The notes: generated by a model from the letters alone, not told the origin. DNA of 64,000 nt from Tubiluchus corallicola (GCA_030141605.1 JAQGDQ010000841.1:24817-88816), one strand, 5' to 3'. Shown: positions 6,481-64,000, counted from the stretch's first letter. Program-made: numbers and translations.

Positions 6481-8318
6481 GTAAGTACCAAATAATAACC
6501 ATAATTAATAAAAAGGTGTACATCGTCTAAATAATAATGTACTGCCAACTTCTTGTAAAGCTTTTAAATTAGGCTTATTGGAGTAGAGTATACTTCGTGC
6601 ATGCATACTACGCTAATCTACACTTAAGCCAAAAATAATAATTAATATAAACACTGGGGCTTTGATATGGTTAATAATAATACTAGGACGAGCATTGTAC
6701 CATGTGTGTACTGTAGTTTATTTTATACTGATCTCAAGTACATTTAAATCAAGACTAAAAACAACTTAGTAACCGTGCTGCGCACATATGACTTGTATGT
6801 ATTACCAACCCATTGCATTGCAGTTACCGGCCCAAGGTGACACCTAACTTGTATCACGATTAAATGGCCTTTATTCTGCCACCTGCTGCCTTCAGTGCCC
6901 AGCTTGCCCATAGATTAGCATGGGCCCGTATGCTCTTGCGGTTCCTGGGTAAGTGCCCAGCTTGCCCATAGATTAAGACAATCCTGAAGCTGACAGTAAA
7001 AATATGTTTGTTTCCATCTAGTTGCCCGGCTAATATTATTTTTATCGCGCACCCGGAATTATGGAAATTGTAATTTTTTTTGTATAAAATCGTATTTTTC
7101 AATCTAAAACTTAATATGCAATCATTTTTTATAACATCGTTCTTCGCGCAGGATGCGGCGACGTTTTTCCACGGCTAACTCTCGTCCAGGGTTGCCATTT
7201 TGTATGATGCTCATCAGATTGGAGGTTAAAAGTATAGAATTTTTCACCAAATCGGTGTATTAAGAGCCGAGTAGTGTTGCCGCTTATACCATAATTATCA
7301 GAACATACACGTTCATGATACAAAAAAGAGACTATATAATATTCAATTATTATAAGATAATTTAGTAATGCGAATCTAAAAAACAAAGTGTGAAAAAATC
7401 TGCATTGGATAAAATTACTGCTAACCGGCGGGAAATAAACAAACTTTGATTTCAACTTCGTATTTTCAAACCTGATTCCGTATTTAGGTGAACAGTGTTT
7501 GAGGCTTTTCCTGCGCAGTATTTCTTATTTGTATTACATTCATTGTAGGCCCTTTCACTAGATATTGTACATGAAACTATTGTAAATGTATTGTAAACTT
7601 ATGACTTACAACTGATTTTAAATATTTCACGATTCAGCTTTAAACATTCGCAAAGCTTTAAAAAAAGTTTCCTCCCTCCCTACTGACATCTTATGAGCTC
7701 ATAAGGTAAAACAGAAACAATTTTTTTGTGACTAGGTTAAGTTTAAAATGTGAATACCCAGGCATATTTTTGCTGCGAATATAAAACGATTTTACTAAGT
7801 TTTGCACAACGCGCTGAAACTTTCTAAAATTTTTCTTTCAAGGGCATTAAAATAAGGTCACCTTTCCTGGAGGCTAGCGTAGTGTTTGTAGCTTAGCATG
7901 ACTAGCCATATACGGATAAGTATTAAAACATGTAGGATTGTAGGTGTAAATTTTAACTAGTTTATTGGTTTGTTGCACGGCCTACTGAACTCAGTAACAT
8001 TTGGGTCGTCTTGTTCTTATTGTAACAGCTAAGCTATCGTTTCCAAGTGCTCGACGAATGTGTAGATATTGCGAGCAATGCCACATATAGTGCAGATACT
8101 GTTTGCGAAATTTGATTTTTATTTTAACAAATTGAAGAGTTTAGTGTAACAATTTCTTGTCAGCATGTGACTTACTTTGGTACGTAATTTGATTTTGCTG
8201 TTATTAACTCTTATTTTCGTCTTCATACTTGTTTTTTTGGCTGCTTACTCATACTATTTAAACTCTTTGAACTATTCATTATCAGCAGTTCAGCATTCTG
8301 CACAGCATTTGACTTTAA

Positions 8319-8925
8319 AGCAAAACTGGACCCAATCTTAAACTGCAAATCAAAACAATCTACTCTTTAAAATATTGAAATGAAATATACCATTTTTTCA
8401 AAAACGACTTGCGTGAAAGAATTGTTACCACGCAAACACAATTTCGCATTTGCATCACTAGTTCTTCGCTGTTACATGCATTTCACCATTTGTTGGTTAG
8501 ATGGGCACTAGCGCCTGCATTTTGGAAACATTTTGTACAAAAAAACAGGTGCTGTACCTCTCAATTCAGAGGTGTTTGTTTGTGATGTCGTGCATGAACA
8601 TAGCAGTAAATTTGAAATTTGAATTTTTATCTTAAAACTTGCCTTGTTTTACTACAACACACCGAATATCTTCCAATAGCACTGTACTTCAATTTTTGCT
8701 TTTGCAAACATGTGCAGCACTCACGGAATTTTTTTGCTATTAAAAATTATGTTAGTTTGTGATGTCATCAATAGTTGGGCTCGTTCGCTGTTAAATAAGA
8801 TTTTTATCTATCATTTAATTATCAGAAGTGTTTCTGCTGTGTTACTTGTGTTAAAATGTATACATTTTATCAGAATTAAAAATGGGGTAGTATATGAAAA
8901 ATCATCCCGTCTTCCTAGATCTTAA
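8319..8925. mobile_element. Kolobok-like MITE family, copy
   Basis: TTAA|AGCAAAACTGGACCC start; ends AAATCATCCCG..TTAA. Confidence 0.65.
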
Positions 8926-27890: not shown

Positions 27891-28317
27891 GAAATTACTT
27901 TTTAATATGCTATTTACTGAGCAGACATTCATGACGCGTCAAATGAATTTTCTTGCTCACAGGTTTTTGAAATGTTTAGCCAAAATCCCTGGAAGGAAAT
28001 GGGATAGAGGATGGAAATGGAAATGGGATAGAGGACTTGACATAAACCCAGAAAACATTTTTATTTTTGAGATAGTTTTGAAGACATATTTTAAAAGTAA
28101 CCATGTTTTCAGCCAAACATTCAAGGTTCGATTCCTGCCTGCATTTATAATTCTGAAGAAACACATTTTTGTGTCACCGATTCATGGAAAATAAAATAAA
28201 ACAACAAAAAGAAATAGTTTCTAAAAAAAATGTTGGGTTTCCGAACAAACGTTGGGCATTTGCAACTGTGGTATCTTAATTGTATCCTGCCTAGTGCTGC
28301 CATCTTTCAACAGTTAA

Positions 28318-28815
28318 AGCAAAACTGGACCCAATGTTAAATTGTAGGTCAAAATAATTTACTCTTTAAAATATTGAAAGGAAACATGCTATTTTTTCAA
28401 AAATGACTTATGTGAAAGAATCATTACCACACAAACACAATTTCACGTTCGCGCCACTAGTTCTACACTGTTACATGCATTTTGCTATTCGTTATTTAGA
28501 CGGGCACCAGCGCCTGCATTTCGGAAACACATTGCAAAAAACAGTTGCTGTACTTGTCAGTTTAGATGTGTTAGTCTGTGAGGAACTGCACACGTTCGAC
28601 ACCTCATGCGTAAATCTGCAAATTTTGAATATTTATCTTAAAACTTGCCTAGTTTTAGTACAACACAATGAATATTTTCCATAGCACTGTACTTCAATTT
28701 TCTCTTTCGCAAACACATGCAACACACTCATGGAATATTTTTGCTGTTGAAAATTATGTTAGTTTGTGATGTCATCACCAGTTGGGCTCGCCTGCTGTTA
28801 ATTAAGTTTTTAATC
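28318..28815. mobile_element. Kolobok-like MITE family, truncated copy
   Basis: TTAA|AGCAAAACTGGACCC start and shared body. Confidence 0.6.
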
Positions 28816-28824
28816 TATTATTGA

Positions 28825-42607: not shown

Positions 42608-43215
42608 GTCGGTCAAAACAATCTGTTCTTTAAAATATTGAAAGGAAACATCCCGTTTTTTAATGAATGACTTACGTGAAAGAATTATAACCACACACAC
42701 AATTTCACGCTCATACCAATTGTTCTTCTACATGCTTCTAGTTCGTGCCACTACATGCATTTCGCCATTTTCTAGTTAGACGGGCACTAGCGCCTACGTT
42801 TTGAAAACGCATTGCGCAAAAGACAGGTGCTGTACTTCTCAGTTCAGATGTGTTAGTTTGTTACGAACTACACACGTTCGACGGCTCATGCGTCAGCACA
42901 CGATAAATTTGAAATTTGAATTTTTATCTTAAAACTTGCCTAGTTTTAGTACAACACACGGAATATCTTACAGTAGCACTAATCTTCAATTTTCGCTTTC
43001 GCAAACACGCGCAACACGCTTATGGAAAATTTTTGCTATTGAAAATTATGTTAGCTTGTGATGTTGTCAATACTTGGGCTCGCCCGCCATTATTTAAGAT
43101 TTTAATCTATTATTTAATTATCAGAAACGCTTTTGCAGTATTAATTGTGTTAAGATGTATACTTTCTAGCGGACTTGAAAATGGGGAAGTATATGAAAAA
43201 TCATCCGTCTTAGTT
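42608..43215. mobile_element. Kolobok-like MITE family, copy lacking its left end
   Basis: Shared body; ends AAAATCATCCGTCTTAGT|TTAA. Confidence 0.6.
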
Positions 43216-43736
43216 TAACAGGATTTTTCTCTTGACTACTTAACCTCAACTCAGGTCGTTGACTCTACGCGGTCTACATCAGTCTTAAAGCAACAGGGAA
43301 CAATAATTGTGTCTTTGTTGTGAAGACAGATGACAGATGGTCACCTTAACTGAGCGAGTGTAATTAAGAGAAAACGCCTCAAGACTAGAGGATTACATAC
43401 TGTACACGAAAGTGCAGTATAACTTCGTTTATTACACCACCAGACAGGTTGTACTTGCAGTTTACTTTGCCGTGAGCAGAATAACACGTTTTATGGCAGT
43501 TCTCTTTTGCGCTGCGTCAGTAACCAATTTTTTGGTGAGTGGTCAGTCGTGGTCTATTGAACACGTGACTAGAGAGCGAAAAGTGAAGTGAACAGGTCAG
43601 TAACTCCTGCAAATTCTTTTGAAAATTAGTTTTGAAAAAACATGACAATTTGTTGGTGATTGTTGTTAGCAAATAGAGTAATAAGTACTTTTAAAATTAA
43701 AGAATGCGGTATTATAAGATTTCAGCTTGACCACAA

Positions 43737-43812
43737 GGTGTTGTATGGTCTAGTGGTCAAGGCATGCGACTTGCAATTCAAAGGTCTCTAGTTCAAATTC
43801 AAGCTATAGCCA
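43737..43812 (+). other. tRNA-like SINE head or pseudo-tRNA
   Basis: TGGTCTAGTGG A-box and GTTCAAAT B-box at tRNA spacing; stems imperfect. Confidence 0.4.
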
Positions 43813-44007
43813 AATGTTGCTTCAATGCTTTTTTGAATAATTTTGCTGTCTTTCTGTTTACTTTTCCAATTTTAAGTGTTTAGTAAACGATAAGTGATTG
43901 ATTTGTTATTACGACGCTTTAAACTTTGCAGCACTGTAGCAGTGATTGCTGTTACCAATAAACTTCCAGGATTGTTTCCAGACGAATTGGACAAGCAGAA
44001 CAACTTC

Positions 44008-47000
44008 ATGGTATTGACTGGTATTGTTATATTGCTTGTTTTGTCAACGCATAGTCGAAATGCAGGTAGGTAATGTTGAAAAAAATCGCAATTGAAAATC
44101 ACCATCATCATTATGCCTAATACGTAAAACGCATGTTGTAGACATTGGGCAGGTAGAACTCGAAAATGAAAGAATTTTGTCCTCAAGGCAGCTAAACACA
44201 GCAGTTATCCAGGACGAAATTAGACGCTGCTATGCGAATTGCTTGTCAGCACCAATTCCTCTCTTAATTGAAAGATAAGAAAAACGTTCGATCCGAACGA
44301 GTTTTTTTAGCTCGAATTAGTCATTTAAGTCATAAGTCATTTATTTCACATTACACATTTACAATAGTTTCATGTTCAATATCTAGTGAAAGGGCCTACA
44401 ATGAACGTAATACAAATAAAAAATACTGCACAGGAAAAGCCTCAAACACTGTTCACTTATATACGAAGGTAAATGTGTTGCGGGCAATCAAAAAGCAGGG
44501 CTTGTTAGATTGTCCCACACAGTGAAAGAAAAAAAGTAATGGAAATAATCTGAAAATTTAAAGTGAATCGTGATAAAAAAAGTTGTAAATTCGAATAACT
44601 CAGCACTTCATCTTTGTTCGTTCTTTATCATTAAAGCGTTTGAAACATCATGCAAGCAGCACAATTTCTGTAAACAATTTTTAAGCAAATTATTAGCGTT
44701 TTTACTGCAGAACAAAATCAATATGTGCATCATGATTTTTGTGATTTTTATTAGTGATTGGAAATTCCATTGAAATTCTTTAAAACAGACTTCTAGATTG
44801 GAAAAATTAATCCTAAAATTTAGTTTGGTTCGAATTTGAGGAAGAAATTCGATTCGATTCGAATTCACTTTCTGCTTGAGAAAGTCCCCCCATCAAACAA
44901 CACTCAACAAGCTGAACGTTTTTGGTCACTAGAAGGACTGTCCTAACAGCATTATAGGCCCGGGCCAGAGTAGTACCACTGGGGCCTCTTACCTGCACAA
45001 CACAATTTTTGGTCACTAGAAGGACTGTCTTAATAGCATTATAAGCCCAGGCCAGAGCAGTACCACTGGGGCCCTCTTACCTACACAACTCACAATTTTT
45101 GGTCACTAGAAGGACTGTTTTAACAGAATTATAGGCCCCGGCCGAAGCAGTACCACTGGGGCCCTCTTACCTACACAATACAATTTTTGGTCACTAAAGG
45201 ACTGTCTTAACAGCATTATAAGCCCGGGCCAGAGCAGTACTACTGGTGCCCTCTTACCTACACAACACAATTTTTGGTCACTAGAAGGACTGTCTTAACA
45301 GCATTATAGGCCCCGGCTGAAGCAGTACCACTGGGGCCCTCTTACCTACACAACACAATTTTTGGTCACTAGGACTGTCTTAACAGTATTATAGGCCCCG
45401 GCCAAAGCAGTGCCACTGGGCCCTCTTACCTGCACAACTCACCATTTTTGGTCACTAGAAGGACTGTCTTAACAGCATTACAGGCCCCGGCCGAAGCAGT
45501 ACCACTTGGACCCTCTTACCTACACAACACAATTTTTGGTCACTAGAAGGACTGTCTTAACAGCATTATAGGCCCGGGCCAGAGTAGTACCACTGGGACC
45601 CTCTTACCTACACAACACAATTTTTGGTCACTAGAAGGACTGTCTTAATGGCATTATAAGCCCAGGCCAGAGCAGTACCACTGGGGCCCTCTTACCTACA
45701 CAACACAATTTTTGGTCACTAGAAGGACTGTCTTAACAGCATTATAGGCCCCGGCCGAAGCAGTACCACTGGGGCCTTCTTACCTACACAACACAATTTT
45801 TGGTCACTAGAAGGACTGTCTTAACAGCATTACAGGCCCCGGCCGAAGCAGTACCACTGGGGCCCTCTTACCTACACAACACAATTTTTGGTCACTAGAA
45901 GGACTGTCTTAACAGCATTATAAGCCCGGGTCAGAGCAGTACCACTGGTGCCCTCTTACCTACACAACACAATTTTTGGTCACTAGAAGGACTGCCTTAC
46001 CAGCATTGTAGGCCCCGGCCGAAGCAGTACCACTGGGGCCCTCTTACCTACACAACACAATTTTTGGTCACTAGGACTGTCTTAACAGCATTGTAGGCCC
46101 TGGCCGAAGCAGTACCAATGGGGCCCTCTTACCTAAACAACACAATTTTTGGTCACTAGAAGGACTGTCTTAACAGCATTATAGGCCCCGGCCAAAGCAG
46201 TAGCACTGGGGCCCGATTACCTGCACAACACAATTTTTGGTCACTAGAAGGACTGTCTTAACAGCATCATAAGCCCCGGCCGAAGCAGTACCACTGGGGC
46301 CCTCTTACCTGCACAACTCGCAACTACTCACAGGAATAAAAATATAAATGGTTGACAGAATTAAACATAACACAGGTTATTTGCAGGCTAATAGATAACG
46401 GGTTATTCTAGGCTGTTGCAAAGTAGCATTGGATAACAGGTGTTCGGAAATGGCTGCCCTTAGTGTACAGTACAAGTCAAAAAGCCAACAAAACCATTGA
46501 GAAAGAGCAGTTAAGTTTGAATCAAGAAGCGTTATCCTGTGTGTTTCACAGTTACTCACAGTTCTGAGGACCATAAATGGACACGAGATGATTCATGCAG
46601 GTTCTCAGTGGGAGTGGTGTCATGACACATTTGTTCCAGAACTTAAGTTGATTTTTTTTCTTCCCACAACGAGGAGTGGAAAGATATTAGAACCGCACAT
46701 AAAATAAGGAATTTCATAACAACAGGATTTATATCTACATGTATTTGCGAAAGTTTTAATAATAGCCGAGCTATCATTTCTTGTCATCCTGCAAACTGTC
46801 TTAAAATGAAACAAGTCATTTTCTTAATCTCTAATTTTTTTCTTTTCAGAGGCTTCAGAGGTATTTTGGTCTTCCATACCATCGTCATTTCCTTGTCGAA
46901 CTCTGTCTACAGCAACGTGTAACGACTCGTTAACAAATGAGTGTCCGAGGGTCATTCCAGCTCTCACACCTAGCCTCTTCTCTCATGTTTTACCTGTGGT

Positions 47001-50000
47001 CAACTTTGGATTAGATGGTCAAATAGGTGAGTGTCCGAGGGTCATTCCAGCTCTCACACCTAGCCTCTTCTCTCGTGTTTTACCTGCGGTCAACTTTGGA
47101 TTAGATGGTCAAATAGATAAGTGTCCTAGGGTCATTCCAGCTCTCACACCTAGGTCTCTTCTCTCATGTTTTACCAGTGGTCAACTTTGGATTAGATGGA
47201 CAAATAGGTGAGTATCCCAAGGTCATTCCAGCTCTCACACCTAGGTCTCTTCTCTCATGTTTTACCTGTGGTCAACTTTGGATTAGATGGACAAATAGGT
47301 GAGTATCCCAAGGTCATTCCAGCTCTCACACCTAGACTCCTCATGTTTTACCTGTGGTCAACTTTGGATTAGATGGTCAAATAGGTGAGTGTCCTAGGGT
47401 CATTCCAGCTCTCACACCTAGTCTCTTCTCTCATGTTTCACCTGTGATAAACTTTGGATTAGATGGTCAAATAGGTGAGTGTCCTAGGGTCATTCCAGCT
47501 CTCACACCTAGTCTCTTCTCTCATGTTTCACCTGTGGTCAACTTTGGATTAGACGGTCAAATAGGTGAGTGGAGTAATACCTTTGATATTACGGTTTTTT
47601 CATTGTGAAGTTATATAAATTTTACACTTGTAGAAATTTTGTCATGGCCTTAGGTTCCTTTCCAAACTCTGTTAGGACCATAAGACTTTGCTGCAGTTTG
47701 CACACGTTCACGAAACTGCTCACGGCGATTGCACTATATTTGATAATTTTTGTAGGTTTCTACTCCTCACATGATGGATTTTCATGCAAAATTATCTATG
47801 AAATGCATTTGCCTACCTCAGACAAATTGAAAATCAATTTTGACGCTTTCAGTAACTGCAGTGTTTGCACTGTAACAATGTATAGTATCACTTGCGTGAA
47901 ATCGGTTAATGCAGAAAATTTCAACTATCCAGATACAACAGTCTGATTCACTTTGACCTCATGTCTACTATATTTTTAAGGAGAAATTCCTGTTAAAAGA
48001 TGAAACCAACCTAAATTCCTCCTTTCCTGATCGGTTTGTTTTTCCTGGAATAACAGCAGAACACTGCACAGACGATCATTAAATTAGTGTGTACGATCAC
48101 GCAAGTGTGTACCAGACTAGCGGCTACTCATAGATCAAGTTGGAGTGCCTGAAAAGGGCGTGTTCCTCGTAATTTTATCCAATTAAATCGCTTATGAATG
48201 TTTAAACAAATAGCTTGATTGGATAGCCGAGATTCTCCTGCATAGAACAGTACCTAATTTGTAATCAGTTAGTTATGTCTGTGCTCATATAGTAGCAGAA
48301 AAGTCACAGGTTTTGTGATATTTTGAATGGTTTGGTCATGAAGTAGCTAAGTGAAAAACACTATGGCAGTTATCGTAGGTAATAAAATACATAATTGAGA
48401 CCACAGATAAAAATGACAGGTAGTCTTAAAATTCACGTGTGCTAAGCCTTGCTTTGTTTAAGTAAAATAAAATATCTTCATTTATCCTAATCAAATACAG
48501 CAATACGCAAATTCATCATTTGATGTTACCTTCGAATTTAGCCTATCTTTTGTGTTCATTTTGTAGTTGAATATCTGCCAAACTACGTGAAGAAACATCT
48601 AAAATGGAGGTTGAATATGCCTTGGAGGATTATAAAGAGGATGTTTGAACGATCAAACTATCATAGGGCAAGATCTGGTACGAATGCTCAATAATTTTTC
48701 AATTTGCGGTTTTTAATATTTGGCACAACTTAGGCAGGCTTTCAGTATAGCCAGCACAAGGATGTACATTTATGTACAGTTAATTCTACCGTAGAATTTA
48801 TGTAGAATAGCTACATTAATTCTACCGTAGAATTTATGTAGAATAGTTACATTAATTCTACCATAGGATTTATGTAGAATAGCTACATTAATTCTACCGT
48901 AGAATTTATGTAGAATAGCTACATTAATTCTACCATAGGATTTATGTAGAATAGCTACGTTAATTTTACTGTAAAATTTATGTAGAATAGCTACGTTAAT
49001 TCTAATGTAGAATTTATGTATAATAGCTAAGTTAAGTCCAATTTATGCAGAGCAGCAACGTTAATTCAACGTAGAATATATTTATATATACATATGTGTG
49101 TGTAGTGTGTTTATATACGTGTGTCTATATACTACAATGACTACACGTCTAAATATATGAATTAAAAGCCATTATATAGCTATGTTAAAGATTCTGAGTT
49201 TAATGAGTTAAAATGTGAGAACAAATATAACAATAAACAAACTAACGGGCTCACAAACAGGCAGACGGACAAAAAAACGAACGAATACATTTAACACCAC
49301 TATCACGACTCTCATTATGTTTGTGGCTTGCAGTAAAAGCTTGCTCAAAAACACGTAAGCAGGTTCACTAACATAAATATTCATTCAGTCTTAACAACCA
49401 GAATACATGTTATCTGTTAGTAGCTTTATTGTGTACCGACAGGTAAAGAGTGGACAGCTTGTTGGTGTAAAAGAATTTCCATTGAACAGATGGAAGGGTT
49501 AAAAGCATATCAAAAAGTAAGTGATACAACGTTTAAAACGGTTTAAGCGTAAGTTATTAGTTCATAGCCTATTACTACTACCACTTGCTACCTTCATTAC
49601 TGAACTCTTCACTGTAGTAAAGTCACCAGTAAGAATATGCTACCTTCATTATTCTACTCTTCACTGTAGTAAAGTCAGCAGTAAGAATATGCTACCTTCA
49701 TTATTCTACTCTTCACTGTAGTAAAGTCAGCAGTAAGTATATGCTACCTTCATTATTCTACTCTTCACTGTAGTAAAGTCAGCAGTAAGAATATGCTACC
49801 TTCATTATTGTACTCTTCACTGTAGTAAACTCAGCAGTAAGAATATGCTACCTTCATTATTGTACTCTTCACTGTAGTAAAGTCACCAGCAAGAACATGC
49901 TACCTTCATTATTGTACTCGTCACTATAGTAAAGTCATCAGTAAGAATATGTTACCTTCAGTATTGTACTCTTCACTGTAGTAAAGGCACCAGTAAGAAC

Positions 50001-53000
50001 ATGCTACCTTCATTATTGTACTCTTCACTGTAGTAAAGTCACCAGTAAGAATGTCATGCTAACTTCATTATTGTACTCTCCACTGCAGTAAAGTCACCAG
50101 TAAGAACATGCTACCTTCATTACTGTACTCTTCATTGTAGTAAAGTCACCAGTAAGAATATGCTACCTTCAGTATTGTACTCTTCACTGTAGTAAAGGCA
50201 TCAGTAAGAACATGCTACCTTCATTATTGTACTCTTCACTGTAGTAAAGTCACCAGTAAGAACATGCTACCTTCATTATTGTACTCTCCACTGCAGTAAA
50301 GTCACCAGTAAGAATATGCTACCTTCATTATTGTACTCTTCACTGTAGTAAAGTCACCAGCAAGAACATGCTACCTTCATTATTGTGCTCTTCACTATGG
50401 TAAAGTCATCAGTAAGAATATGTTACCTTCAGTATTGTACTCTTCACTGTAGTAAAGGCACCAGTAAGAACATGCTAAATTCAGTATTGTACTCTTCACT
50501 GTAGTAAAGTCACTAGTAAGAATATGCTACCTTCATTATTGTACTCTTCACTGTAGTAAAGTCACCAGTAAGAATATGCTACCTTCAGTATTGTACTCTT
50601 CACTGTAGTAAAGTCACCAGTAAGAACATGCTAACTTCATTATTGTACTCTTCACTGTAGTAAAGTCACCAGTAGGAACATGCTACCTTCATTATTGCAC
50701 TCTTCACTGTAGTAAAGTCACTAGTAAGAATATGCTACCTTCATTATTGCACTCTTCACTGTAGTAAAGTCACCAGTAAGAATATGCTACCTTCAGTATT
50801 GTACTCTTCACAGTAGTAAAGGCATCAGTAAGAATATGCTACCTTCATTATTGTACTCTTCACTGTAGTAAAGTCACCAGTAAGAACATGCTAACTTCAT
50901 TATTGTACTCTTCACTGTAGCAAAGTTACCAATAAGAATATGCTACCTTCATTATTGTACTCGTCACTGTAGTAAAGTCACCAGTAAGAACATGCTACCT
51001 TCATTATTGTACTCGTCACTGTAGTAAAGTCACCAGTAAGAATATGTTACCTTCATTATTGCACTCTTCACTGTAGTAAAGTCACCACTAAAGATATGGT
51101 GATTTTCATTGTTTTACACTTCATTGCAGTACAGTCACTTCCCAGGTTCTGGTACAGAGAATGCGCACAAAGACAGTTTTTGGAGGAGCATACTGCACAT
51201 GCGTAAAAAATTTGGCTCAAAAGAATTTGGTTTCGTGCCAATCAGCTTTCTTCTGCCTGACCAGATGACAGAGTTTCTGAGTTACTATGACAACCATCCT
51301 CAAGGAAAGTGGATACGTAAACCAGTAAGTTCTAGTACACAATGTCTGCGCATTAATTGCTTTTGACTAATATAATACTTTAATTTTAATTTGATTGAAT
51401 ATGAAGCTGTTTCTGAATAAATTCTAAAATAATAATTGGTGCTTTACAGCATCTTGCTTTCAATGCTTAACAAAATGATATTATTGAAAAAAGTTTTGTG
51501 TTTTTTTTTGTCTTGTACTTTTATACTCCACTCGTAGTTTAGCAAGTTTGGTGGGAGAGATGTGGCAGTTTTGAACAACCGCAGTCAGCTACCAAACGAT
51601 CCTGACAAGCCTTTCATTATTCAGAGGTTTGTGTAGTCTATATTGTTCGTCTCTAATCTCTAATGCATTAAAAGATTGGTTGCAAAAGTAAAAGAGCTAT
51701 ACTATTGATATGGTCTACGAATGTTTAGATTGATGCAAACTAGGAGCTCTGCCTACTATAGATAAATTTCCATTTTTTTATTACCTAATTGTTAACTAAA
51801 TCTAACTAATTATTTATTAATGAGTGAGTGACCATTAAGACCTATAATGTACAAAACTAAAAAGATTTTCATTTTTATTTTTTTGCTGCAACTTGTCGAA
51901 AAGTTTGTGTTTTCATTTCAGTGCCATTTTCTGGTACTGAGCTTGCAGGGAAGTCTTTTGTACAAGACGGCGCTGTTCTTTCTTATCCACATCCAAAACG
52001 AGTTTAAGATCTCAACAAAACATGAACACATCCATATTACTAACTGAAATAAATAATTTTTGTGCTTCTAGGTATATCAGTAAGCCACTGCTTATTGAAG
52101 GTTATAAGTTTCACGTTAGATTACACGTTTACGTCTCATCAATACAACCAATGAGGATTTACATTCATGAAAATGGACTTGTACGATTCGCCAGCAACAA
52201 GTAAGAACGTTTTTCTTCAATTCAAAACTCACTTGTGAATAAAACATCACGAGCACTTTTTTCTACAGTTTCAATGTGATTTTGTAACAATGTCCACTCT
52301 TTTACGAACGAAAGCTTTCTTTTAAAGGAATACAGGATGATTTTTTATGCACTACACCATTTTCAAATCCGATAAACACTATACATTTTTACTGCAAAAG
52401 CGTTTCTGATAACTAAATAACAGATTAAAAACATATTTAATGGAGGGCAAGTCTAACTAATGATGACATCACGAACTAACATAATTTTAAGCGGCAAAAA
52501 TATTCCATGAGCGTGTTCCTCGTGTATGCAAAAGGGAAAATTGAATACAGTGCTAAGATATTCAGTGTGTTATGTTAAAATTAGGTAAGTTTTAAGATAA
52601 AAATTCAAATTACAAATTTGCTGCTGTGCTCATACATGAGCGTTGAAACTAACACGTCTGAACTGAGAAGTACAGCACCTGTTTTTTGTGCAATGCATTT
52701 CTGAAATGCAGGCGCTAGTGCCCATCTAACTAGCGAATGCCAAAATGCAAATAACAGGGAAGAACTAGTGGCGTGAACCGGAAATTGTGTTTCTGTGGTA
52801 ACGATTCGTTTACGTAAGTCATTTTTGAAAAAATAGTACGTTTCCTTTCAGTATTTTAAAGAGTACATTTGTTTTGATCAGTTTAAGATTGGATCCGGTT
52901 TTGCTTTAATAGTAAATGACATAATTGCTTTTACTGTTAGAAGCAAAGTCTATTAAATAGAAAAGAGATTCTTGGCACAAAAATAGCATATTTTACGCCT

Positions 53001-56000
53001 AATATTTAAAGAATGTCACTTTTTTAAGAACTTAATCAAAGCAGATTGTAGCATCACATTCAAACGGAAGAAAAAACCTTGACACCGATCACTGCTATTA
53101 GCTTGTTTACCATTCTTCCCTACTATTATCACGTACCTCTTTAAAGAGAAGTGTTAAGACAATTTTCGTCTGATGTAACAATGACTTTTCATACTGAAAT
53201 GTGCACTTGCCAAGTGTTTTTAAATGCGAAAAAGACTTTTGGATGTGAATTAAGTTTTGGTACCGCAGTTGCATGGATTTTGTTGGCACGGTACGCACCA
53301 GTTCTGCAAGTTCATGTGGTAGAGAAATTGCCACATCATACATGGATCATATTGATGCATTGGAAGTCAAAAACTTGTTGAGTCTTGTGATTGTTTTTAT
53401 TTCATGGATCATATTGATGCATTGGAAATCAAAAACGTGTTGAGTCTTGTGATTGTTTTTATTTCGTGGGTCATATTGATGCATTGGAAATCAAAAACGT
53501 GTTGAGTCTTGTGATTGTTTTTATTTCATGGGTCATATTGATGCATTGGAAATCAAAAACGTGTTGAGTCTTGTGATTGTTTTTATTTCATGGATCATAT
53601 TGATGCATTGGAAATCAAAAACGTGTTGAGTCTTGTGATTGTTTTTATTTCATGGATGATATGGATGCATTGGAAATCAAAAACGTGTTGAGTCTTGTGA
53701 TTGTTTTTATTTCATGGATCATATTGATGCATTGGAAATCAAAAACGTGTTGAGTCTTGTGATTGTTTTTATTTCGTGGGTCATATTGATGCATTGGAAA
53801 TCAAAAACGTGTTGAGTCTTGTGATTGTTTTTATTTCATGGATCATATTGATGCAATGAAAATAAAAAACGTGTTGAGTCTTGTGATTGTTTTTATTTCA
53901 TGGATCATATTGATGCATTGGAAATCAAAAACGTGTTGAGTCTTGTGATTGTTTTATTTCATGGATCATATTGATGCATTGGAAATCAAAAACGTGTTGA
54001 GTCTTGTAATCGTTTTTATTTCAGATACTCCAACAAGGATTCTGATGCATCCAACAGCTTCATGCATCTCACTAACTGGGATTTGAATAAAAAAAATAGA
54101 CATTCAAGGCAGAATATTACCTTCAGTCCAACGTATAATTACATGTGGTAAGTGGTAGGTCTCTTTCACTCTGATGGTAACAGATCATGCAGTGAGACCA
54201 CAGCTGCCAAGGCCGTCTTAGACCTTCTCCTCATGTGTTAGTACAGTCAACCTCGGGTATAAGGTACTCGCTTATAAGGGACCACCAACACTAATGGTCC
54301 CGATTTTTCGTAACATTTTTCCTATGTAAAAATCTTTTTATATAAGGTACTCGGATATAAGGGACTTACGGTTATAAGGGACAATATCTTAAGGTCCCGC
54401 GTAATAGAAACCCAGGTAAATTACCTCGCATATAGAGGTCCCTATGATCAAAGCGAAATTGATTTTTAACCTCAATTTTTGCAAACACATCTCGCATCAC
54501 TGAAGGAGCTTCCTACATACCGTTTGCACTGAATGTGTAGCAATAATCCATAAAAATATGGGTGAAAGTGCAAAGAAAGTACAGGTCTAGATACACCCTC
54601 TGTCTGTCTCAGCTTCGGCTATAAGCGATTTTTTCCGGTCCTGAGGTGTCCCTTATATCCGAGTGTTGGGAGCTAGTAGATTTTTATGGTGGGGGTGCAA
54701 CTCTTTACCTCCCAACTCATCCACAAATCTGACTACCCTGTTGCGTCATCTTTTATTCACAATAAAAGGGTTGTGCAACATACGTGGGCGGTTGTTGTCA
54801 TACAATTTTCCAGAGGGCAAGAAGGCATATGAACCAAAATTCAACGACACAGGTATAATTAATATATCTTTAGTGAAGTTGCAATGTCGAAGGGCTCACT
54901 TGAAAAACCAGCGGGTCTAAGGCTTGATGTTACGTTTTACGGGGGTCTACTTAGGCGTTATGGTTTTCCATGTTGACCATGACATACATAGATTCCAAAC
55001 ATTCCAGCAACAAAATCTTATATGAAATGGAGGAAAAGATTATGATTATGTTTACTATTTTTATTCACTTTTTACTCTGTTTAGATAAATTAGAACAGGT
55101 TATAATATCAATAACAGTTTCGCGTAAAGGCAGTTAATAATAACAAAAATGACAAAGTGAAAAGAATACAAAATGTCTACTTATCAGTTAACCCTTCCCC
55201 TGAGAGGACAAGGACATGGGAGAGGAGTCCGCGGACGTAGCTCACTCCAGTCAGTCACAGCAACACATCAACGACTTCAAGTCTATGGCCATAACAATCA
55301 ACGGTGATGGCGCCGGCTGCAGCACCAATCAAACATGAACTAAGGAATGGCTCACAAGTCTCTGTGGTTGACTCAGGATACGTCCACAATCCACAACGTC
55401 TGGACACTGGTGGCTAGTCACGCCTCTCCGTGTAGTTTAGAATAAGACACATCGTAGAAAGTTCCAACATCTCATCAGTGTGAATAAAGCTCCATCCACA
55501 ACATCAAAACTGAAGTAGTTTGGTATCACCACTGATAGTCTCTTTATGTTAGATCAGTCAAATAGTAGATGTGCACAAGTTTAGTGCTTCAGACTCGTTA
55601 CACTGTACTCTCCTGGCTATCTGTGTCATGCACTTTCCAAGATCATGTTATGCATGGATAGTTTATAGTATATTATCAAAGGAGGGGTGATAGGTAGGAA
55701 GCCCTTCCCACAGACTATACTACAGCAATATCTAGTTTAGCTATGTGTAAGAACCTTACACCGAGGTTGACCGTATGCATGTTTCATTTATCTAATAATA
55801 CTCTGTTTTGGTAGACTAGTTACATTATTTATTATTTTCAGGACATTAAGAACTTTTTGGAAATACTTGGACCATAAAGGATCGGAAAATAGGAATGAAC
55901 TATGGCAAAAGATGCAAGATATGATTATAAAGCAGTTGATAAGGTAGGAAAAGATGAGAAAATTATGCAAAAGAAAGTTCGAGATGAGATTGCAATTTAA

Positions 56001-56168
56001 TTTTAAATTACGTTTTCTGCATTTTGTTTACAGCGTGGAATGGGTGATGAATCACATGATGAACGCGCATGTCAAAAACCGTTATTCTTGTCATGAGATC
56101 TACGGTTACGACTTCATGTTTGACGAGAATCTCACCCCTTGGATGCTAGAAAATAATGCTGAACCCAG
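44008..56168 (+). CDS. TTLL4: TTLL4-like tubulin-tyrosine-ligase-family (ATP-grasp) protein with putative N-terminal signal peptide; 3'-truncated here
   Basis: Exons 44008-44065, 46850-47026, 48567-48677, 49443-49516, 51130-51324, 51538-51626, 52072-52200, 54025-54147, 55842-55943, 56034-56168, all GT-AG and phase-compatible. Motifs: PALTPSLFSHVLPVVNFG, SHFPGS..KDSFWR..KFGSKEFGFVP, KWIRKP, IIQRYISKPLLIEGYKFHVR, GLVRFAS, FMHLTN, RYSCHEIYGYDFMFDENLTPWMLENN. The first exon is the least certain. Confidence 0.85.
44100..44260 (-). mobile_element. Short RTE-type retroposon, diverged copy 4
   Basis: TTGTAGACATTGGGCAGG..GCTTGTCAGCACCA shared with the other copies. Confidence 0.6.
44920..46320. repeat. 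~88-bp tandem repeat, ~16 copies (TTLL intron)
   Basis: TTTTTGGTCACTAGAAGGACTGTCTTAACAGC recurring. Confidence 0.95.
46939..47570. repeat. 90-bp tandem repeat, 7 copies, spanning exon 3' end and donor
   Basis: GAGTGTCCGAGGGTCATTCCAGC...CAAATAG|GT; the first copy is coding. Confidence 0.95.
48780..49075. repeat. 36-bp tandem repeat, ~8 copies
   Basis: TTAATTCTACCGTAGAATTTATGTAGAATAGCTACA. Confidence 0.85.
49587..51090. repeat. 52-bp tandem repeat, ~29 copies, filling a TTLL intron
   Basis: GCTACCTTCATTATTGTACTCTTCACTGTAGTAAAGTCACCAGTAAGAATAT. Confidence 0.95.
52326..52905. mobile_element. Kolobok-like MITE, full length (inverted relative to the other copies)
   Basis: TTAA|AGGAATACAGGAT ... 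ATCCGGTTTTGCT|TTAA. Confidence 0.75.
53341..54022. repeat. 62-bp tandem repeat, 11 copies, ending at a splice acceptor
   Basis: CATGGATCATATTGATGCATTGGAAATCAAAAACGTGTTGAGTCTTGTGATTGTTTTTATTT. Confidence 0.95.
54244..54668. mobile_element. pogo/Tigger-like MITE (mirrored at about 61008-61429)
   Basis: TA|CAGTCAACCTCGGGTATAAGG ... CCTTATATCCGAGTGTTG; internal TATAAGGGAC subrepeats. Confidence 0.6.
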
Positions 56169-56189
56169 GTAAGAATAAGACAATTGGTA

Positions 56190-56685
56190 AGATGTGTGGT
56201 GAACGCACACCATGGCTGGGCAGTGAATGCCAAGTGACCGCAGTGAGATGTGTGGTGAAAGCACACCATGGCTGGGCAGTGAATGCCAAGTGACCACAGT
56301 GAGATGTGTGGCGAAACCAGGCCATGGCTGGTCAATGAATGCCAGGTGACCACAGTGAGATGCGTGGCGAAAGCACGCCATGGCTGGGCAGTGAATGCCA
56401 AGTGACCACAGTGAGATGTGTGGTGAAAGCACGCCATGGCTGGGCAGTGAATGCCATGTGGCCACAGTGAGATTGTAGTGAAACCACGCCATGGCCAGGC
56501 AGTGAATGCCAGGTGACCACAGTGAGATGTGTGGCAAAAGCACGCCATGGCTGGGCAGTGAATGCCAGGTGACCACAGTGAGATGTGTGGTGAAAGCACG
56601 CCATAGCTGGGCAGTGAATGCCAGGTGACCACAGAGAGATGTGTGGTGAAACCATGCCATGGCTGGGCAGTGAATGCCAGGTGAC
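56190..56685. repeat. 56-bp tandem repeat, ~9 copies (mirrored at 58991-59486)
   Basis: GATGTGTGGTGAAAGCACGCCATGGCTGGGCAGTGAATGCCAGGTGACCACAGTGA. Confidence 0.95.
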
Positions 56686-58990
56686 AGTAGGGTAGATGTT
56701 ACACCTCTGGCCGATTTCCCCCCCTCCTTTGGCTGCCCCTAAAAAAGTGCGAAAATCCGGAAACACCCCTAAAAAAGTGAAGTGGCTCTATTGTCGTGCT
56801 AGTTAAGTGACCAATTTAAGGATTAGGAGTGACGGTTGGTCGACGGGCCACGCCCCCCTCGGCTGCCGGGGGTGGGAACAAAAATCACCCCCTAAAAAAG
56901 TGAAGTGGGTCTATTGTTGCGCTAGTTAAGTGCTCGATTTAAGGATTAGGAGTGACGGTTGGAACTCCCGCACGCTTTGGGGGGGTGCACCCGGCGAGAA
57001 CACCCCCCCTCCGCGGTAAATGCAGTCGTCCGTTCGACACGAGCTCGCTGCGCACTTTGCTCCACCCTAATTGTGGCTAATCCGGTAATCGACTCTCGCC
57101 GCCTAGCTAGCTAGATAATGGGGTAATTGACTTGCGCGCGTGCGTGGCTACGCTAAAAGATTTCTCTACCCACGTGCAGCAGTGCACAGTCTCGTCATCG
57201 TCGTTAAATGGTTAGGATGTTCTTTTATGCGAGTCTAAATTGCCATGCAATTTTTAAAAATTTTACCCCACCCTCATCCGGGCTAGAATGTTCTTTTATG
57301 CGCGTCTAAGTTGCGATACAATTTTATCCTACCTTTATCCGAGATGGATGGATGGATGGATGGATGTCGTCGCCAAAAAGCCTCCTTCGCTCCATCCAAT
57401 GCGGTCGCATCGTGCAACATACAGTCTACTCACACGCGCACACACCGCCGAGCACGATTGTTAGCACGGGCCGACCATTAGCACGAACGTTACCACGTGT
57501 AACATACAGTCTACTCACGCGTCACCGAGCATGATTAATTTCTGGGTTTCTTTATTTTTTTGTCAACTGTAACCAACGATGATGATGATGATGATGATGA
57601 TGACGACGATGATGACGCGGTATTACCTAAAGCAGAGTCTGATCTTTGGTCGTCATCCACTTTTTTATCCGACAGAACAATAATAACTAATGTTAGTTAA
57701 AATTATCTTTTCATTTTGTAAAATCTTTCTATCTGTACTAACTCGCATGTTTAAACCCGCAACGAATGCACTCATCTGATCAGACGCCAAGGCAGGCACG
57801 TGTCTATTTTGAAAAAATCTTTCTATCTGTACTAACTCGCATGTTTAAACCCGCAACGAATGCACTCATCTGATCAGACGCCAAGGCAGGCACGTGTCTA
57901 TTGCTTAATCCGGTAATTGACTCGACTACCTAGCTAATGAGGGCTTAATCCGTTAATTGACTTGCTAGACATGACACCCGCGGCTATTTAAGTGCGTGTA
58001 CCTGTTTTTTAAAAGCCCGTTGGAATGTACAGCAAGCAGACAGTAGGACAGCTGCCGTCTAGGCAATTGAATGCCTGCAGCCTTCTAGTCTGCACGAATT
58101 TCAACGAGTCAGTATTTTTTAGGTGAGGATATATATATATAATCCCAAAAACTCACACAAGTTGGTTACAGTTGACAAAAAAATAAAGAAACCCAGAAAT
58201 TAATCATGCTCGGTGACGCGTGAGTAGACTGTATGTTACACGTGGTAACGTTCGTGCTAATGGTCGGCCCGTGCTAACAATCGTGCTCGGCGGTGTGTGC
58301 GCGTGTGAGTAGACTGTATGTTGCACGATGCGACCGCATTGGATGGAGCGAAGGAGGCTTTTTGGCGACGACATCCATCCATCCATCCATCCATCTCGGA
58401 TAAAGGTAGGATAAAATTGTATCGCAACTTAGACGCGCATAAAAGAACATTCTAGCCCGGATGAGGGTGGGGTAAAATTTTTAAAAATTGCATGGCAATT
58501 TAGACTCGCATAAAAGAACATCCTAACCATTTAACGACGACGACGAGACTGTGCACTGCTGCACGTGGCTAGAGAAATCTTTTAGCCCATTATCTAGCTA
58601 GCGGCCAGCTAGGCGGCGAGAGTCGATTACCGGATTAGCCACAATTAGGGTGGAGCAAGCAAAGTGCGCAGCGAGCGCGTGTCGAACGGACGACTGCATT
58701 TACCGCGGAGGGGGGGGGGTGTTCTCGCCGGGCGCACCCCCCCAAAGCGTGCGGGAGTTCCAACCGTCACTCCTAATCCTTAAATCGAGCACTTAACTAG
58801 CGCAACAATAGACCCACTTCACTTTTTTAGGGGGTGATTTTTGTTCCCACCCCCGGCAGCCGAGGGGGGCGTGGCCCGTCGACCAACCGTCACTCCTAAT
58901 CCTTAAATTGGTCACTTAACTAGCACGACAATAGAGCCACTTCACTTTTTTAGGGGTGTTTCCGGATTTTCGCACTTTTTTAGGGGCAGC
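56686..58990. mobile_element. Non-coding long-TIR element (~850-890-bp TIRs, 583-bp core), Maverick/Polinton-like or foldback
   Basis: GC-rich insert beginning AGTAGGGTAG; arms 56732-57577 / 58161-58990; internal direct repeats; no ORF. Confidence 0.55.
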
Positions 58991-59507
58991 GTCACCTGGC
59001 ATTCACTGCCCAGCCATGGCATGGTTTCACCACACATCTCTCTGTGGTCACCTGGCATTCACTGCCCAGCTATGGCGTGCTTTCACCACACATCTCACTG
59101 TGGTCACCTGGCATTCACTGCCCAGCCATGGCGTGCTTTTGCCACACATCTCACTGTGGTCACCTGGCATTCACTGCCTGGCCATGGCGTGGTTTCACTA
59201 CAATCTCACTGTGGCCACATGGCATTCACTGCCCAGCCATGGCGTGCTTTCACCACACATCTCACTGTGGTCACTTGGCATTCACTGCCCAGCCATGGCG
59301 TGCTTTCGCCACGCATCTCACTGTGGTCACCTGGCATTCATTGACCAGCCATGGCCTGGTTTCGCCACACATCTCACTGTGGTCACTTGGCATTCACTGC
59401 CCAGCCATGGTGTGCTTTCACCACACATCTCACTGCGGTCACTTGGCATTCACTGCCCAGCCATGGTGTGCGTTCACCACACATCTTACCAATTGTCTTA
59501 TTCTTAC

Positions 59508-62500
59508 CTGGGTTCAGCATTATTTTCTAGCATCCAAGGGGTGAGATTCTCGTCAAACATGAAGTCGTAACCGTAGATCTCATGACAAGAATAACGGTTT
59601 TTGACATGCGCGTTCATCATGTGATTCATCACCCATTCCACGCTGTAAACAAAATGCAGAAAACGTAATTTAAAATTAAATTGCAATCTCATCTCGAACT
59701 TTCTTTTGCATAATTTTCTCATCTTTTCCTACCTTATCAACTGCTTTATAATCATATCTTGCATCTTTTGCCATAGTTCATTCCTATTTTCCGATCCTTT
59801 ATGGTCCAAGTATTTCCAAAAAGTTCTTAATGTCCTGAAAATAATAAATAATGTAACTAGTCTACCAAAACAGAGTATTATTAGATAAATGAAACATGCA
59901 TACGGTCAACCTCGGTGTAAGGTTCTTACACATAGCTAAACTAGATATTGCTGTAGTATAGTCTGTGGGAAGGGCTTCCTACCTATCACCCCTCCTTTGA
60001 TAATATACTATAAACTATCCATGCATAACATGATCTTGGAAAGTGCATGACACAGATAGCCAGGAGAGTACAGTGTAACGAGTCTGAAGCACTAAACTTG
60101 TGCACATCTACTATTTGACTGATCTAACATAAAGAGACTATCAGTGGTGATACCAAACTACTTCAGTTTTGATGTTGTGGATGGAGCTTTATTCACACTG
60201 ATGAGATGTTGGAACTTTCTACGATGTGTCTTATTCTAAACTACACGGAGAGGCGTGACTAGCCACCAGTGTCCAGACGTTGTGGATTGTGGACATATCC
60301 TGAGTCAACCACAGAGACTTGTGAGCCATTCCTTAGTTCATGTTTGATTGGTGCTGCAGCCGGCGCCATCACCGTTGATTGTTATGGCCATAGACTTGAA
60401 GTCGTTGATGTGTTGCTGTGACTGACTGGAGTGAGCTACGTCCGCGGACTCCTCTCCCATGTCCTTGTCCTCTCAGGGGAAGGGTTAACTGATAAGTAGA
60501 CATTTTGTATTCTTTTCACTTTGTCATTTTTGTTATTATTAACTGCCTTTACGCGAAACTGTTATTGATATTATAACCTGTTCTAATTTATCTAAACAGA
60601 GTAAAAAGTGAATAAAAATAGTAAACATAATCATAATCTTTTCCTCCATTTCATATAAGATTTTGTTGCTGGAATGTTTGGAATCTATGTATGTCATGGT
60701 CAACATGGAAAACCATAACGCCTAAGTAGACCCCCGTAAAACGTAACATCAAGCCTTAGACCCGCTGGTTTTTCAAGTGAGCCCTTCGACATTGCAACTT
60801 CACTAAAGACATATTAATTATACCTGTGTCGTTGAATTTTGGTTCATATGCCTTCTTGCCCTCTGGAAAATTGTATGACAACAACCGCCCACGTATGTTG
60901 CACAACCCTTTTATTGTGAATAAAAGATGACGCAACAGGGTAGTCAGATTTGTGGATGAGTTGGGAGGTAAAGAGTTGCACCCCCACCATAAAAATCTAC
61001 TAGCTCCCAACACTCGGATATAAGGGACACCTCAGGACCGGAAAAAATCGCTTATAGCCGAAGCTGAGACAGACAGAGGGTGTATCTAGACCTGTACTTT
61101 CTTTGCACTTTCACCCATATTTTTATGGATTATTGCTACACATTCAGTGCAAACGGTATGTAGGAAGCTCCTTCAGTGATGCGAGATGTGTTTGCAAAAA
61201 TTGAGGTTAAAAATCAATTTCGCTTTGATCATAGGGACCTCTATATGCGAGGTAATTTACCTGGGTTTCTATTACGCGGGACCTTAAGATATCGTCTTTT
61301 ATAACCGAAAGTCCCTCATATCCGAGCACCTTATATACGAAGATTTTTACATAGGAAAAACTTTACAAAAAATCGCGACCGGTATTGGTGGTCCCTTATA
61401 AGCGAGTACCTTATACCCGAGGTTGACTGTACTAACACATGAGGAGAAGGTCTAAGACGGCCTTGGCAGCTGTGGTCTCACTGCATGATCTGTTACCATC
61501 AGAGTGAAAGAGACCTACCACTTACCACATGTAATTATACGTTGGACTGAAGGTAATATTCTGCCTTGAATGTCTATTTTTTTTATTCAAATCCCAGTTA
61601 GTGAGATGCATGAAGCTGTTGGATGCATCAGAATCCTTGTTGGAGTATCTGAAATAAAAACGATTACAAGACTCAACACGTTTTTGATTTCCAATGCATC
61701 AATATGATCCATGAAATAAAACAATCACAAGACTCAACACGTTTTTGATTTCCAATGCATCAATATGATCCATGAAATAAAAACAATCACAAGACTCAAC
61801 ACGTTTTTTATTTTCATTGCATCAATATGATCCATGAAATAAAAACAATCACAAGACTCAACACGTTTTTGATTTCCAATGCATCAATATGACCCACGAA
61901 ATAAAAACAATCACAAGACTCAACACGTTTTTGATTTCCAATGCATCAATATGATCCATGAAATAAAAACAATCACAAGACTCAACACGTTTTTGATTTC
62001 CAATGCATCCATATCATCCATGAAATAAAAACAATCACAAGACTCAACACGTTTTTGATTTCCAATGCATCAATATGATCCATGAAATAAAAACAATCAC
62101 AAGACTCAACACGTTTTTGATTTCCAATGCATCAATATGACCCATGAAATAAAAACAATCACAAGACTCAACACGTTTTTGATTTCCAATGCATCAATAT
62201 GACCCACGAAATAAAAACAATCACAAGACTCAACACGTTTTTGATTTCCAATGCATCAATATGATCCATGAAATAAAAACAATCACAAGACTCAACACGT
62301 TTTTGACTTCCAATGCATCAATATGATCCATGTATGATGTGGCAATTTCTCTACCACATGAACTTGCAGAACTGGTGCGTACCGTGCCAACAAAATCCAT
62401 GCAACTGCGGTACCAAAACTTAATTCACATCCAAAAGTCTTTTTCGCATTTAAAAACACTTGGCAAGTGCACATTTCAGTATGAAAAGTCATTGTTACAT

Positions 62501-63601
62501 CAGACGAAAATTGTCTTAACACTTCTCTTTAAAGAGGTACGTGATAATAGTAGGGAAGAATGGTAAACAAGCTAATAGCAGTGATCGGTGTCAAGGTTTT
62601 TTCTTCCGTTTGAATGTGATGCTACAATCTGCTTTGATTAAGTTCTTAAAAAAGTGACATTCTTTAAATATTAGGCGTAAAATATGCTATTTTTGTGCCA
62701 AGAATCTCTTTTCTATTTAATAGACTTTGCTTCTAACAGTAAAAGCAATTATGTCATTTACTATTAAAGCAAAACCGGATCCAATCTTAAACTGATCAAA
62801 ACAAATGTACTCTTTAAAATACTGAAAGGAAACGTACTATTTTTTCAAAAATGACTTACGTAAACGAATCGTTACCACAGAAACACAATTTCCGGTTCAC
62901 GCCACTAGTTCTTCCCTGTTATTTGCATTTTGGCATTCGCTAGTTAGATGGGCACTAGCGCCTGCATTTCAGAAATGCATTGCACAAAAAACAGGTGCTG
63001 TACTTCTCAGTTCAGACGTGTTAGTTTCAACGCTCATGTATGAGCACAGCAGCAAATTTGTAATTTGAATTTTTATCTTAAAACTTACCTAATTTTAACA
63101 TAACACACTGAATATCTTAGCACTGTATTCAATTTTCCCTTTTGCATACACGAGGAACACGCTCATGGAATATTTTTGCCGCTTAAAATTATGTTAGTTC
63201 GTGATGTCATCATTAGTTAGACTTGCCCTCCATTAAATATGTTTTTAATCTGTTATTTAGTTATCAGAAACGCTTTTGCAGTAAAAATGTATAGTGTTTA
63301 TCGGATTTGAAAATGGTGTAGTGCATAAAAAATCATCCTGTATTCCTTTAAAAGAAAGCTTTCGTTCGTAAAAGAGTGGACATTGTTACAAAATCACATT
63401 GAAACTGTAGAAAAAAGTGCTCGTGATGTTTTATTCACAAGTGAGTTTTGAATTGAAGAAAAACGTTCTTACTTGTTGCTGGCGAATCGTACAAGTCCAT
63501 TTTCATGAATGTAAATCCTCATTGGTTGTATTGATGAGACGTAAACGTGTAATCTAACGTGAAACTTATAACCTTCAATAAGCAGTGGCTTACTGATATA
63601 C
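59508..63601 (-). pseudogene. TTLL4: Inverted duplicate of TTLL4-like exons (3'-truncated copy)
   Basis: Mirror exons 63473-63601, 61526-61648, 59733-59834 and 59508-59642 match the plus-strand exons. Confidence 0.85.
62768..63347. mobile_element. Kolobok-like MITE, mirror copy in the palindrome
   Basis: TTAA|AGCAAAACCGGAT ... ATCCTGTATTCCT|TTAA. Confidence 0.75.
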
Positions 63602-64000
63602 CTAGAAGCACAAAAATTATTTATTTCAGTTAGTAATATGGATGTGTTCATGTTTTGTTGAGATCTTAAACTCGTTTTGGATGTGGATAAGAAAGAACAG
63701 CGCCGTCTTGTACAAAAGACTTCCCTGCAAGCTCAGTACCAGAAAATGGCACTGAAATGAAAACACAAACTTTTCGACAAGTTGCAGCAAAAAAATAAAA
63801 ATGAAAATCTTTTTAGTTTTGTACATTATAGGTCTTAATGGTCACTCACTCATTAATAAATAATTAGTTAGATTTAGTTAACAATTAGGTAATAAAAAAA
63901 TGGAAATTTATCTATAGTAGGCAGAGCTCCTAGTTTGCATCAATCTAAACATTCGTAGACCATATCAATAGTATAGCTCTTTTACTTTTGCAACCAATCT

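Follow-up and report, generated by a model that had tools for sequence, protein, structure and literature searches.

To our knowledge, the only amino acids that TTLL enzymes donate are glutamate, glycine, and tyrosine. In animals, a secreted TTL-like ATP-grasp ligase was predicted in 2010: CPED1 (C7orf58), which is distantly related to TTL and carries fused cadherin-like and PC-esterase domains, has the predicted role of attaching amino acids to surface polymers (PMC2824669). According to the available part of 10.1101/2020.06.07.139295, lysines 283 and 377 (TTLL6 numbering) are invariant in glutamylases, whereas these positions are hydrophobic or polar in glycylases, and the K283 position is Glu in TTL. 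The same part of that source states that K283 clamps the side chain of the donor glutamate, that K283A abolishes TTLL6 activity, and that initiases have Arg at position 180, where elongases have Gln. Caenorhabditis elegans TTLL-15 lacks a clear ortholog in vertebrates, no microtubule-binding domain has been identified in it, and its closest mouse match is TTLL5; a signal peptide goes unmentioned in the available part of the paper (PMC5051658).

The gene described here, located in a 64,000-nucleotide stretch of DNA (the window), resembles CPED1 in being an animal gene with a signal peptide (here predicted), a TTL-related ligase domain, and fast evolution. Unlike CPED1, it is a direct, intron-bearing TTLL4 descendant; the activity of both proteins is a prediction. 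Its closeness to TTLL4 argues against membership in the CPED1/C7orf58 group, and no Pfam match to cadherin-like or PC-esterase domains was detected in its ten exons, the C terminus lying outside the window. In TTLL3, TTLL8, and TTLL10 glycylases and in TTL, too, the K283 position is not Lys, which is the pattern of enzymes with a non-glutamate donor, but their position 180 is still Arg or Gln and they are cytosolic, whereas our gene model has Gly and is far nearer TTLL4. By description only, it is also similar to TTLL-15, a divergent invertebrate TTLL. The initial annotation had proposed a possibly undescribed modification system; it mentions neither the 2010 prediction of a secreted animal TTL-like ligase (PMC2824669) nor the loss of the gene's 3' end at a fold-back. 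In the literature we searched, mostly papers available without subscription, a TTLL4 paralog with a signal peptide was not reported, nor was action in the secretory pathway demonstrated for any TTLL enzyme.

Gene structure, descent, and the 3' end

The TTLL gene model lies on the + strand and consists of 10 exons, all with GT-AG borders, which together make 1,193 nt and 397 stop-free codons. The approximately 397-residue length given in the initial annotation is therefore correct as a count of open codons but not as the length of the whole protein, since the model stops inside the TTL domain. Exons 5, 7, and 10 exceed the cut-off for the Pfam TTL family (PF03133), which exon 8 matches at a lower, sub-threshold score; the remaining 6 of the 10 pieces give no match. 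Exon 3 (48567 to 48677, + strand) and exon 4 (49443 to 49516, + strand) encode N-domain sequence, and exon 9 (55842 to 55943, + strand) encodes C-domain sequence.

The model is 30 to 40% identical to 159 full-core homologs drawn from 268 proteins, and its best named matches are TTLL4 of frog, eel, snail, and hagfish. Compared with TTLL4 of Spea bombifrons (XP_053327163.1) and Babylonia areolata (XP_076436228.1), it has 38 to 40% identity over ~345 residues and shares the family motifs and all ATP/Mg residues. The boundaries of exon 5 are probably also shared with TTLL4, although the evidence is indirect (26 of 45 short genomic ORF matches end there). In a tree of 53 rows (the model, 39 representatives, and 13 rows taken from the 120 of insects), built without animal TTLL5, TTLL6, or TTLL15, the model falls on the TTLL4 side (support 98/91) and is not part of the insect clade; its branch is the longest, at 1.97 changes per column, and its grouping with TTLL4 of molluscs and vertebrates is weak (85/67). 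These comparisons demonstrate that the gene descended from TTLL4. A search with exon 5 against 1.84 billion representatives gave 158 matches (best 52%, E of 1e-7), with protist TTLL4/5-like proteins at the top and no close subfamily, and exon 5 matched only generic TTL clusters in the ESM Atlas. Of the candidates from single-exon word-index searches, 0/9 were hits in one search and 1/4 in another, and a metagenome scan gave one 17-residue match, attributable to chance. None of the word-index searches, the exon 5 search, or the metagenome scan found a relative that carries the leader described below.

When decay was simulated with substitutions only, the reading frame stayed intact in 15% of copies at 2% neutral divergence and in 0.5% (2/400) at 5%. 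The branch of the model is 1.97 changes per column long, yet only 2/400 simulated copies are intact at 5%, which indicates that selection acted through nearly all of this divergence. Because so few simulated neutral copies stay open, the gene must be either live or dead only very recently. It is a real gene, an intron-containing and fast-evolving TTLL4 paralog.

The window is animal DNA with a GC content of 33 to 50% per 2-kb bin and abundant minisatellites. The only other clear gene in it is DCLK (13800 to 15917, + strand), which is intronless and whose 705-aa product has a kinase and two DCX domains; GC at third positions is 0.59 in DCLK versus 0.42 in the TTLL gene, and the intronless DCLK is possibly a retrocopy. 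A fragment of a decayed retroelement reverse transcriptase (Pfam RVT_1, under cut-off) is present at 2425 to 2796 (+ strand), and a dispersed repeat of ~600 bp occurs in at least 6 copies with 76 to 87% identity (815 to 1226, 8306 to 8916, 28314 to 28822, 42613 to 43211, 52326 to 52918, and 62755 to 63347). Intron 1 contains an 88-bp tandem array of 16 copies (44919 to 46317, no strand assigned). A 90-bp array (46938 to 47571, + strand) is built from 7 units, each the final 90 nt of exon 2 together with its donor; 3 of its 6 intronic copies have frame-changing indels, and the normal protein is retained via the first donor only. Further intronic tandem arrays abut or overlap exon borders at 49586 to 51138, 53341 to 54023, and 56190 to 56685, which suggests that tandem arrays in this genome arise at splice sites.

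The model ends at Pfam position 259 of 292, at the phase-2 donor of exon 10 (after 56168; 11.4 bits). All 159 homologs extend beyond this point, by 31 to 705 residues (median, 174), and the model ends ~13 residues before K377, whose helix is outside the window. Downstream lies an inverted duplication of ~6 kb. The stretch from 51673 to 56685 recurs, inverted, at 58991 to 64000 (- strand; 99.6% identity over 5,013 nt) and reaches the window edge, carrying identical inverted copies of exons 7 to 10 (63473 to 63601, 61526 to 61648, 59733 to 59834, and 59508 to 59642, all - strand). The centre of the fold-back (56686 to 58990) has inner arms that run to 57577 and from 58161 around a loop of 583 nt (57578 to 58160), and its inner 850 bp contain direct subrepeats, like a foldback transposon. 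The arms differ at 20 positions, 17 clustered at 54289 to 54383 and 3 isolated substitutions, none in exons, and by five indels, all in the inner 900 nt. This structure fits either an amplification or haplotype mis-join artefact or a real foldback-element rearrangement, and it may flag misassembly touching any call in 51673 to 64000.

If the rearrangement is real, an inverted duplication at the foldback-like element in intron 10 could have removed the 3' exons and left two convergent truncated copies of a recently broken gene. Consistent with this, no exon 11 was found in the window with a homolog-tail profile (best E of 14, from a profile that had no positive control), translation through the exon 10 donor reaches a stop at once, and the arms differ from each other, by the isolated substitutions (3), the single cluster, and the five indels near the centre, more than identical read copies would. 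However, such palindromes commonly result from amplified or mis-joined long reads, as stated in the available part of PMC6218980, the arm differences sit in repeats and could distinguish two haplotypes, and the reading frame has no decay. We consider a broken gene improbable and favor the reading in which the 3' exons would exist but be hidden by the fold-back.

The candidate leader exon and predicted targeting

The first coding exon proposed in the initial annotation, with its ATG at 44008, a phase-1 donor (CAG/gtaggt) after 44065, and a phase-1 acceptor at 46850, is present in the sequence as described, as is a Cys-containing linker between the leader and the TTLL4 core. The coding part of this candidate exon 1 (44008 to 44065, + strand) encodes a hydrophobic leader, residues 1 to 19: MVLTGIVILLVLSTHSRNA. 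The putative 44065>46850 junction, deduced from genomic sequence, would join it to exon 2 (46850 to 47026, + strand), which encodes a Ser/Thr-rich linker (11 of 34 residues; C35, C43, and C51) followed by the start of the TTLL4 core with its P.L.PSLF motif. Upstream, an in-frame stop precedes the donor at 43595/43596, as previously proposed, and there is no ATG in 43545 to 43595 or in 43970 to 44007. The segment from 43545 to 43595 (+ strand; donor CAG/gtcagt, 9.5 bits, no ATG) is, speculatively, a possible non-coding first exon, next to a TCAGT at ~43543 that may be an initiator-like motif. Contigs of two runs aligned to 43200 to 44900 leave 43656 to 44111 without coverage, which has no bearing on expression.

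Even with hydrophobicity disregarded, 44008 to 44065 appears to be the best candidate for a first coding exon. Scored with a generic matrix, its donor (11.2 bits) is the second strongest of the gene's ten and ranks 2/31 among upstream donors and first within 13 kb; the sole better one is 13.5 kb further off and has no in-phase ATG. Acceptors were scored with a matrix made from the gene's own nine acceptors. Two acceptor candidates, 43970 and 43982, precede the leader exon, and with leave-one-out thresholds six upstream exon candidates pass, one being the leader exon with acceptor 43982. The five others pass these relaxed splice thresholds, and donors at 43534 and 43541 could lengthen the N terminus; an extension via either would convert the hydrophobic segment to a signal anchor and would not eliminate it.

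The hydrophobicity of the leader is itself uncommon. Of 526 open 19-codon peptides that begin with ATG and lie outside tandem arrays, 4 reach a Kyte-Doolittle 8-mer value of at least 3.5 and 16 a value of at least 3.0. Among 91 ATG-led mini-exons with a phase-1 donor on both strands (repeats unmasked), 2 reach at least 3.0 and the leader exon is the only one to reach at least 3.5. None of the 159 homologs, some of them partial, has a hydropathy of at least 3.0 in its first 37 residues. The leader has a short h-region of 10 residues with no positive charge before it and a net acidic stretch behind it, and small residues occupy -3 and -1 of two possible cut sites. It is likely a signal peptide or a short signal anchor.

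An alternative is that the gene product stays in the cytosol, as a TTLL4 paralog specific to its lineage (serving sperm or cilia, for instance) that begins with another first exon; the hydrophobic exon would then have been picked by chance or belong to a minor isoform. Bees, wasps, and sawflies commonly have short TTLL4 paralogs that lack a leader, and in some of these K283 is changed to Leu; ~1% of ATG-led peptides are equally hydrophobic; the leader ATG has T at -3; and the core is still basic, with a net charge of +17 (homolog median, +25). Against this, the leader exon has the strongest right-phase donor near exon 2 irrespective of hydrophobicity, and no better coding candidate is found within 46.8 kb, nor any TTLL4-like N-terminal exon in 1 to 46849 by tblastn with 268 homologs. 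We regard a cytosolic paralog as unlikely. In our judgement the leader exon is probably used in the transcript, and if it is used, a lumenal orientation is very likely.

Several other arguments had been advanced for retargeting to the secretory pathway. Three N-glycosylation sequons were claimed; there are actually four (N44, N219, N308, and N385), versus a homolog median of 5, and at least 4 are found in 115/159 homologs. The short N terminus (61 residues before the core) is also unexceptional, since a quarter of 144 full-start homologs, a set rich in bee and wasp proteins, have 68 or fewer. Cysteines were considered and rejected as a further indication (6 in the model, homolog median 5); at the positions of C35, C43, C51, and C124, at most 1/159 homologs has Cys. 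All three features are ordinary for cytosolic TTLL4 homologs, and the sequons are uninformative. What stands of the retargeting proposal is that the leader exon, by itself, makes it plausible, and we hold secretory targeting to be somewhat more probable than not on that evidence.

Active-site residues and the predicted donor

Active-site positions were mapped via a TTLL4 homolog onto mouse TTLL6, with residue roles taken from the available part of 10.1101/2020.06.07.139295. All nine nucleotide and metal residues are kept (K125, K174, G181, R219, R241, T263, N264, D346, and E359 in TTLL6 numbering), as is N361, while all seven substrate-contact positions are altered (179, 180, 265, 266, 283, 362, and 363). 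Under this grouping, which is our own and in which three of the seven substrate positions make contact through backbone atoms, 9/9 versus 0/7 kept corresponds to a Fisher p of 9e-5; catalytic retention alone has a p of 0.06 at the background of 63/86.

Exon 5 (51130 to 51324, + strand) retains K154 (K125) and K204 (K174), and the invariant Asn of its NHFPG motif is Ser. In exon 6 (51538 to 51626, + strand), which encodes the phosphate loop, G211 is kept, the initiase Arg at TTLL6 position 180 is G210, and an invariant Gly is D213. Exon 7 (52072 to 52200, + strand) retains R251 (R219) and R273 (R241) and has H249 in place of an invariant Asp and H253 in place of an invariant Tyr. Exon 8 (54025 to 54147, + strand) retains T294 and N295 but has an altered donor pocket (W296, D297, N316, Y317, and M318), in which M318 corresponds to K283, its neighbours Gly-His have become Asn-Tyr, and TTLL6 Ser266 is D297. 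Exon 10 (56034 to 56168, + strand) retains D379 (D346), E392 (E359), and N394, and Ile/Ser are replaced by A395/E396.

The K283 position is Lys in 154/159 homologs and Met in none, and position 180 is Arg in 145, Gln in 7, Cys in 5, and Gly in 1 of the 159. K283 is also lost in three wasp/sawfly paralogs that have no leader. P0073, P0081, P0087, and P0020 are sawfly and related paralogs of TTLL4 in which this position is Leu and the leader is absent; P0020 has two TTL domains. The model differs from TTLL4 in its hydrophobic first exon, in the change of the initiase Arg to Gly and of the donor Lys to Met, and in 23 of 86 conserved columns, and its C-terminal part is outside the window.

The initial annotation named the protein a glutamylase. 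This name is not supported, since the residue that clamps the side chain of the donor glutamate, K283, is Met (10.1101/2020.06.07.139295, available part). With K283 replaced by Met and the initiase Arg by Gly, the enzyme is unlikely to be a glutamylase, and the donor is probably an amino acid other than glutamate. The version first proposed, in which the enzyme is secreted and continues to attach glutamate to extracellular proteins, would be consistent with the leader exon, the glutamylase ancestry, and the retention of R273, and K377, outside the window, might be intact; but in addition to the two substitutions, the Asp in place of Ser266 would repel a glutamate side chain, and we consider this version very improbable.

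The extent of the divergence also bears on whether the protein is active. Of the 86 conserved columns, 23 are altered in the model, compared with at most 17 (median, 1) in homologs, and S142, D213, H249, and H253 replace residues that are invariant in 159/159 homologs. H249 stands in for an Asp that binds ribose in TTL, and the protein may therefore have lost its activity. The protein might then be a secretory TTLL4-derived pseudoenzyme, dead or weak, that serves as a nucleotide- or peptide-binding scaffold, as would also agree with the inactivity of TTLL6 K283A (10.1101/2020.06.07.139295, available part) and with the description of teleost and mollusc CPED1 orthologs as inactivated (PMC2824669). 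The 9/9 retention of nucleotide and metal positions, with the alterations clustered at substrate positions, argues against this, and we judge a pseudoenzyme doubtful.

The reading that we prefer, to which we assign a probability of roughly 40%, is that the gene encodes a lumenal or Golgi-anchored TTLL4 offshoot that ligates a non-glutamate amino acid. A TTLL4 offshoot would have gained a signal-peptide or short signal-anchor exon, 44008 to 44065, spliced onto exon 2. The leader would direct the nascent chain to the ER and place the catalytic domain in the ER/Golgi lumen, and the protein would be released or kept anchored through its Ser/Thr-rich stem, the linker being comparable to the stem of a Golgi enzyme. 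ATP is supplied to the ER/Golgi lumen, as known from SLC35B1 and the Fam20 kinases. ATP and two Mg ions would activate the acceptor carboxyl as an acyl-phosphate by ATP-grasp chemistry, and attack by the amine of the donor would join the amino acid to a protein carboxyl. R273 would still hold the donor's alpha-carboxylate, while M318 and D297 would favor a neutral or basic donor over Glu.

Based on its sequence, the gene is an unusual TTLL4 offshoot for which secretory targeting is likely and glutamylase function is unlikely. More speculatively, TTLL4 may have been re-routed to the secretory pathway repeatedly in animals and its pocket rebuilt, giving an undescribed lumenal "tubulin-code-like" modification that would attach an amino acid, neutral or basic, to the C termini or to side chains of glutamates in extracellular matrix, glue, or coat proteins. 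A TTLL4 descendant that combines an intact catalytic core with a rebuilt pocket would offer a directly testable case in which both the compartment and the donor amino acid are new. It would also put to the test the 2010 prediction of animal surface-protein modification by ATP-grasp ligation and would show the ease with which the K283/position-180 code can be rewired.
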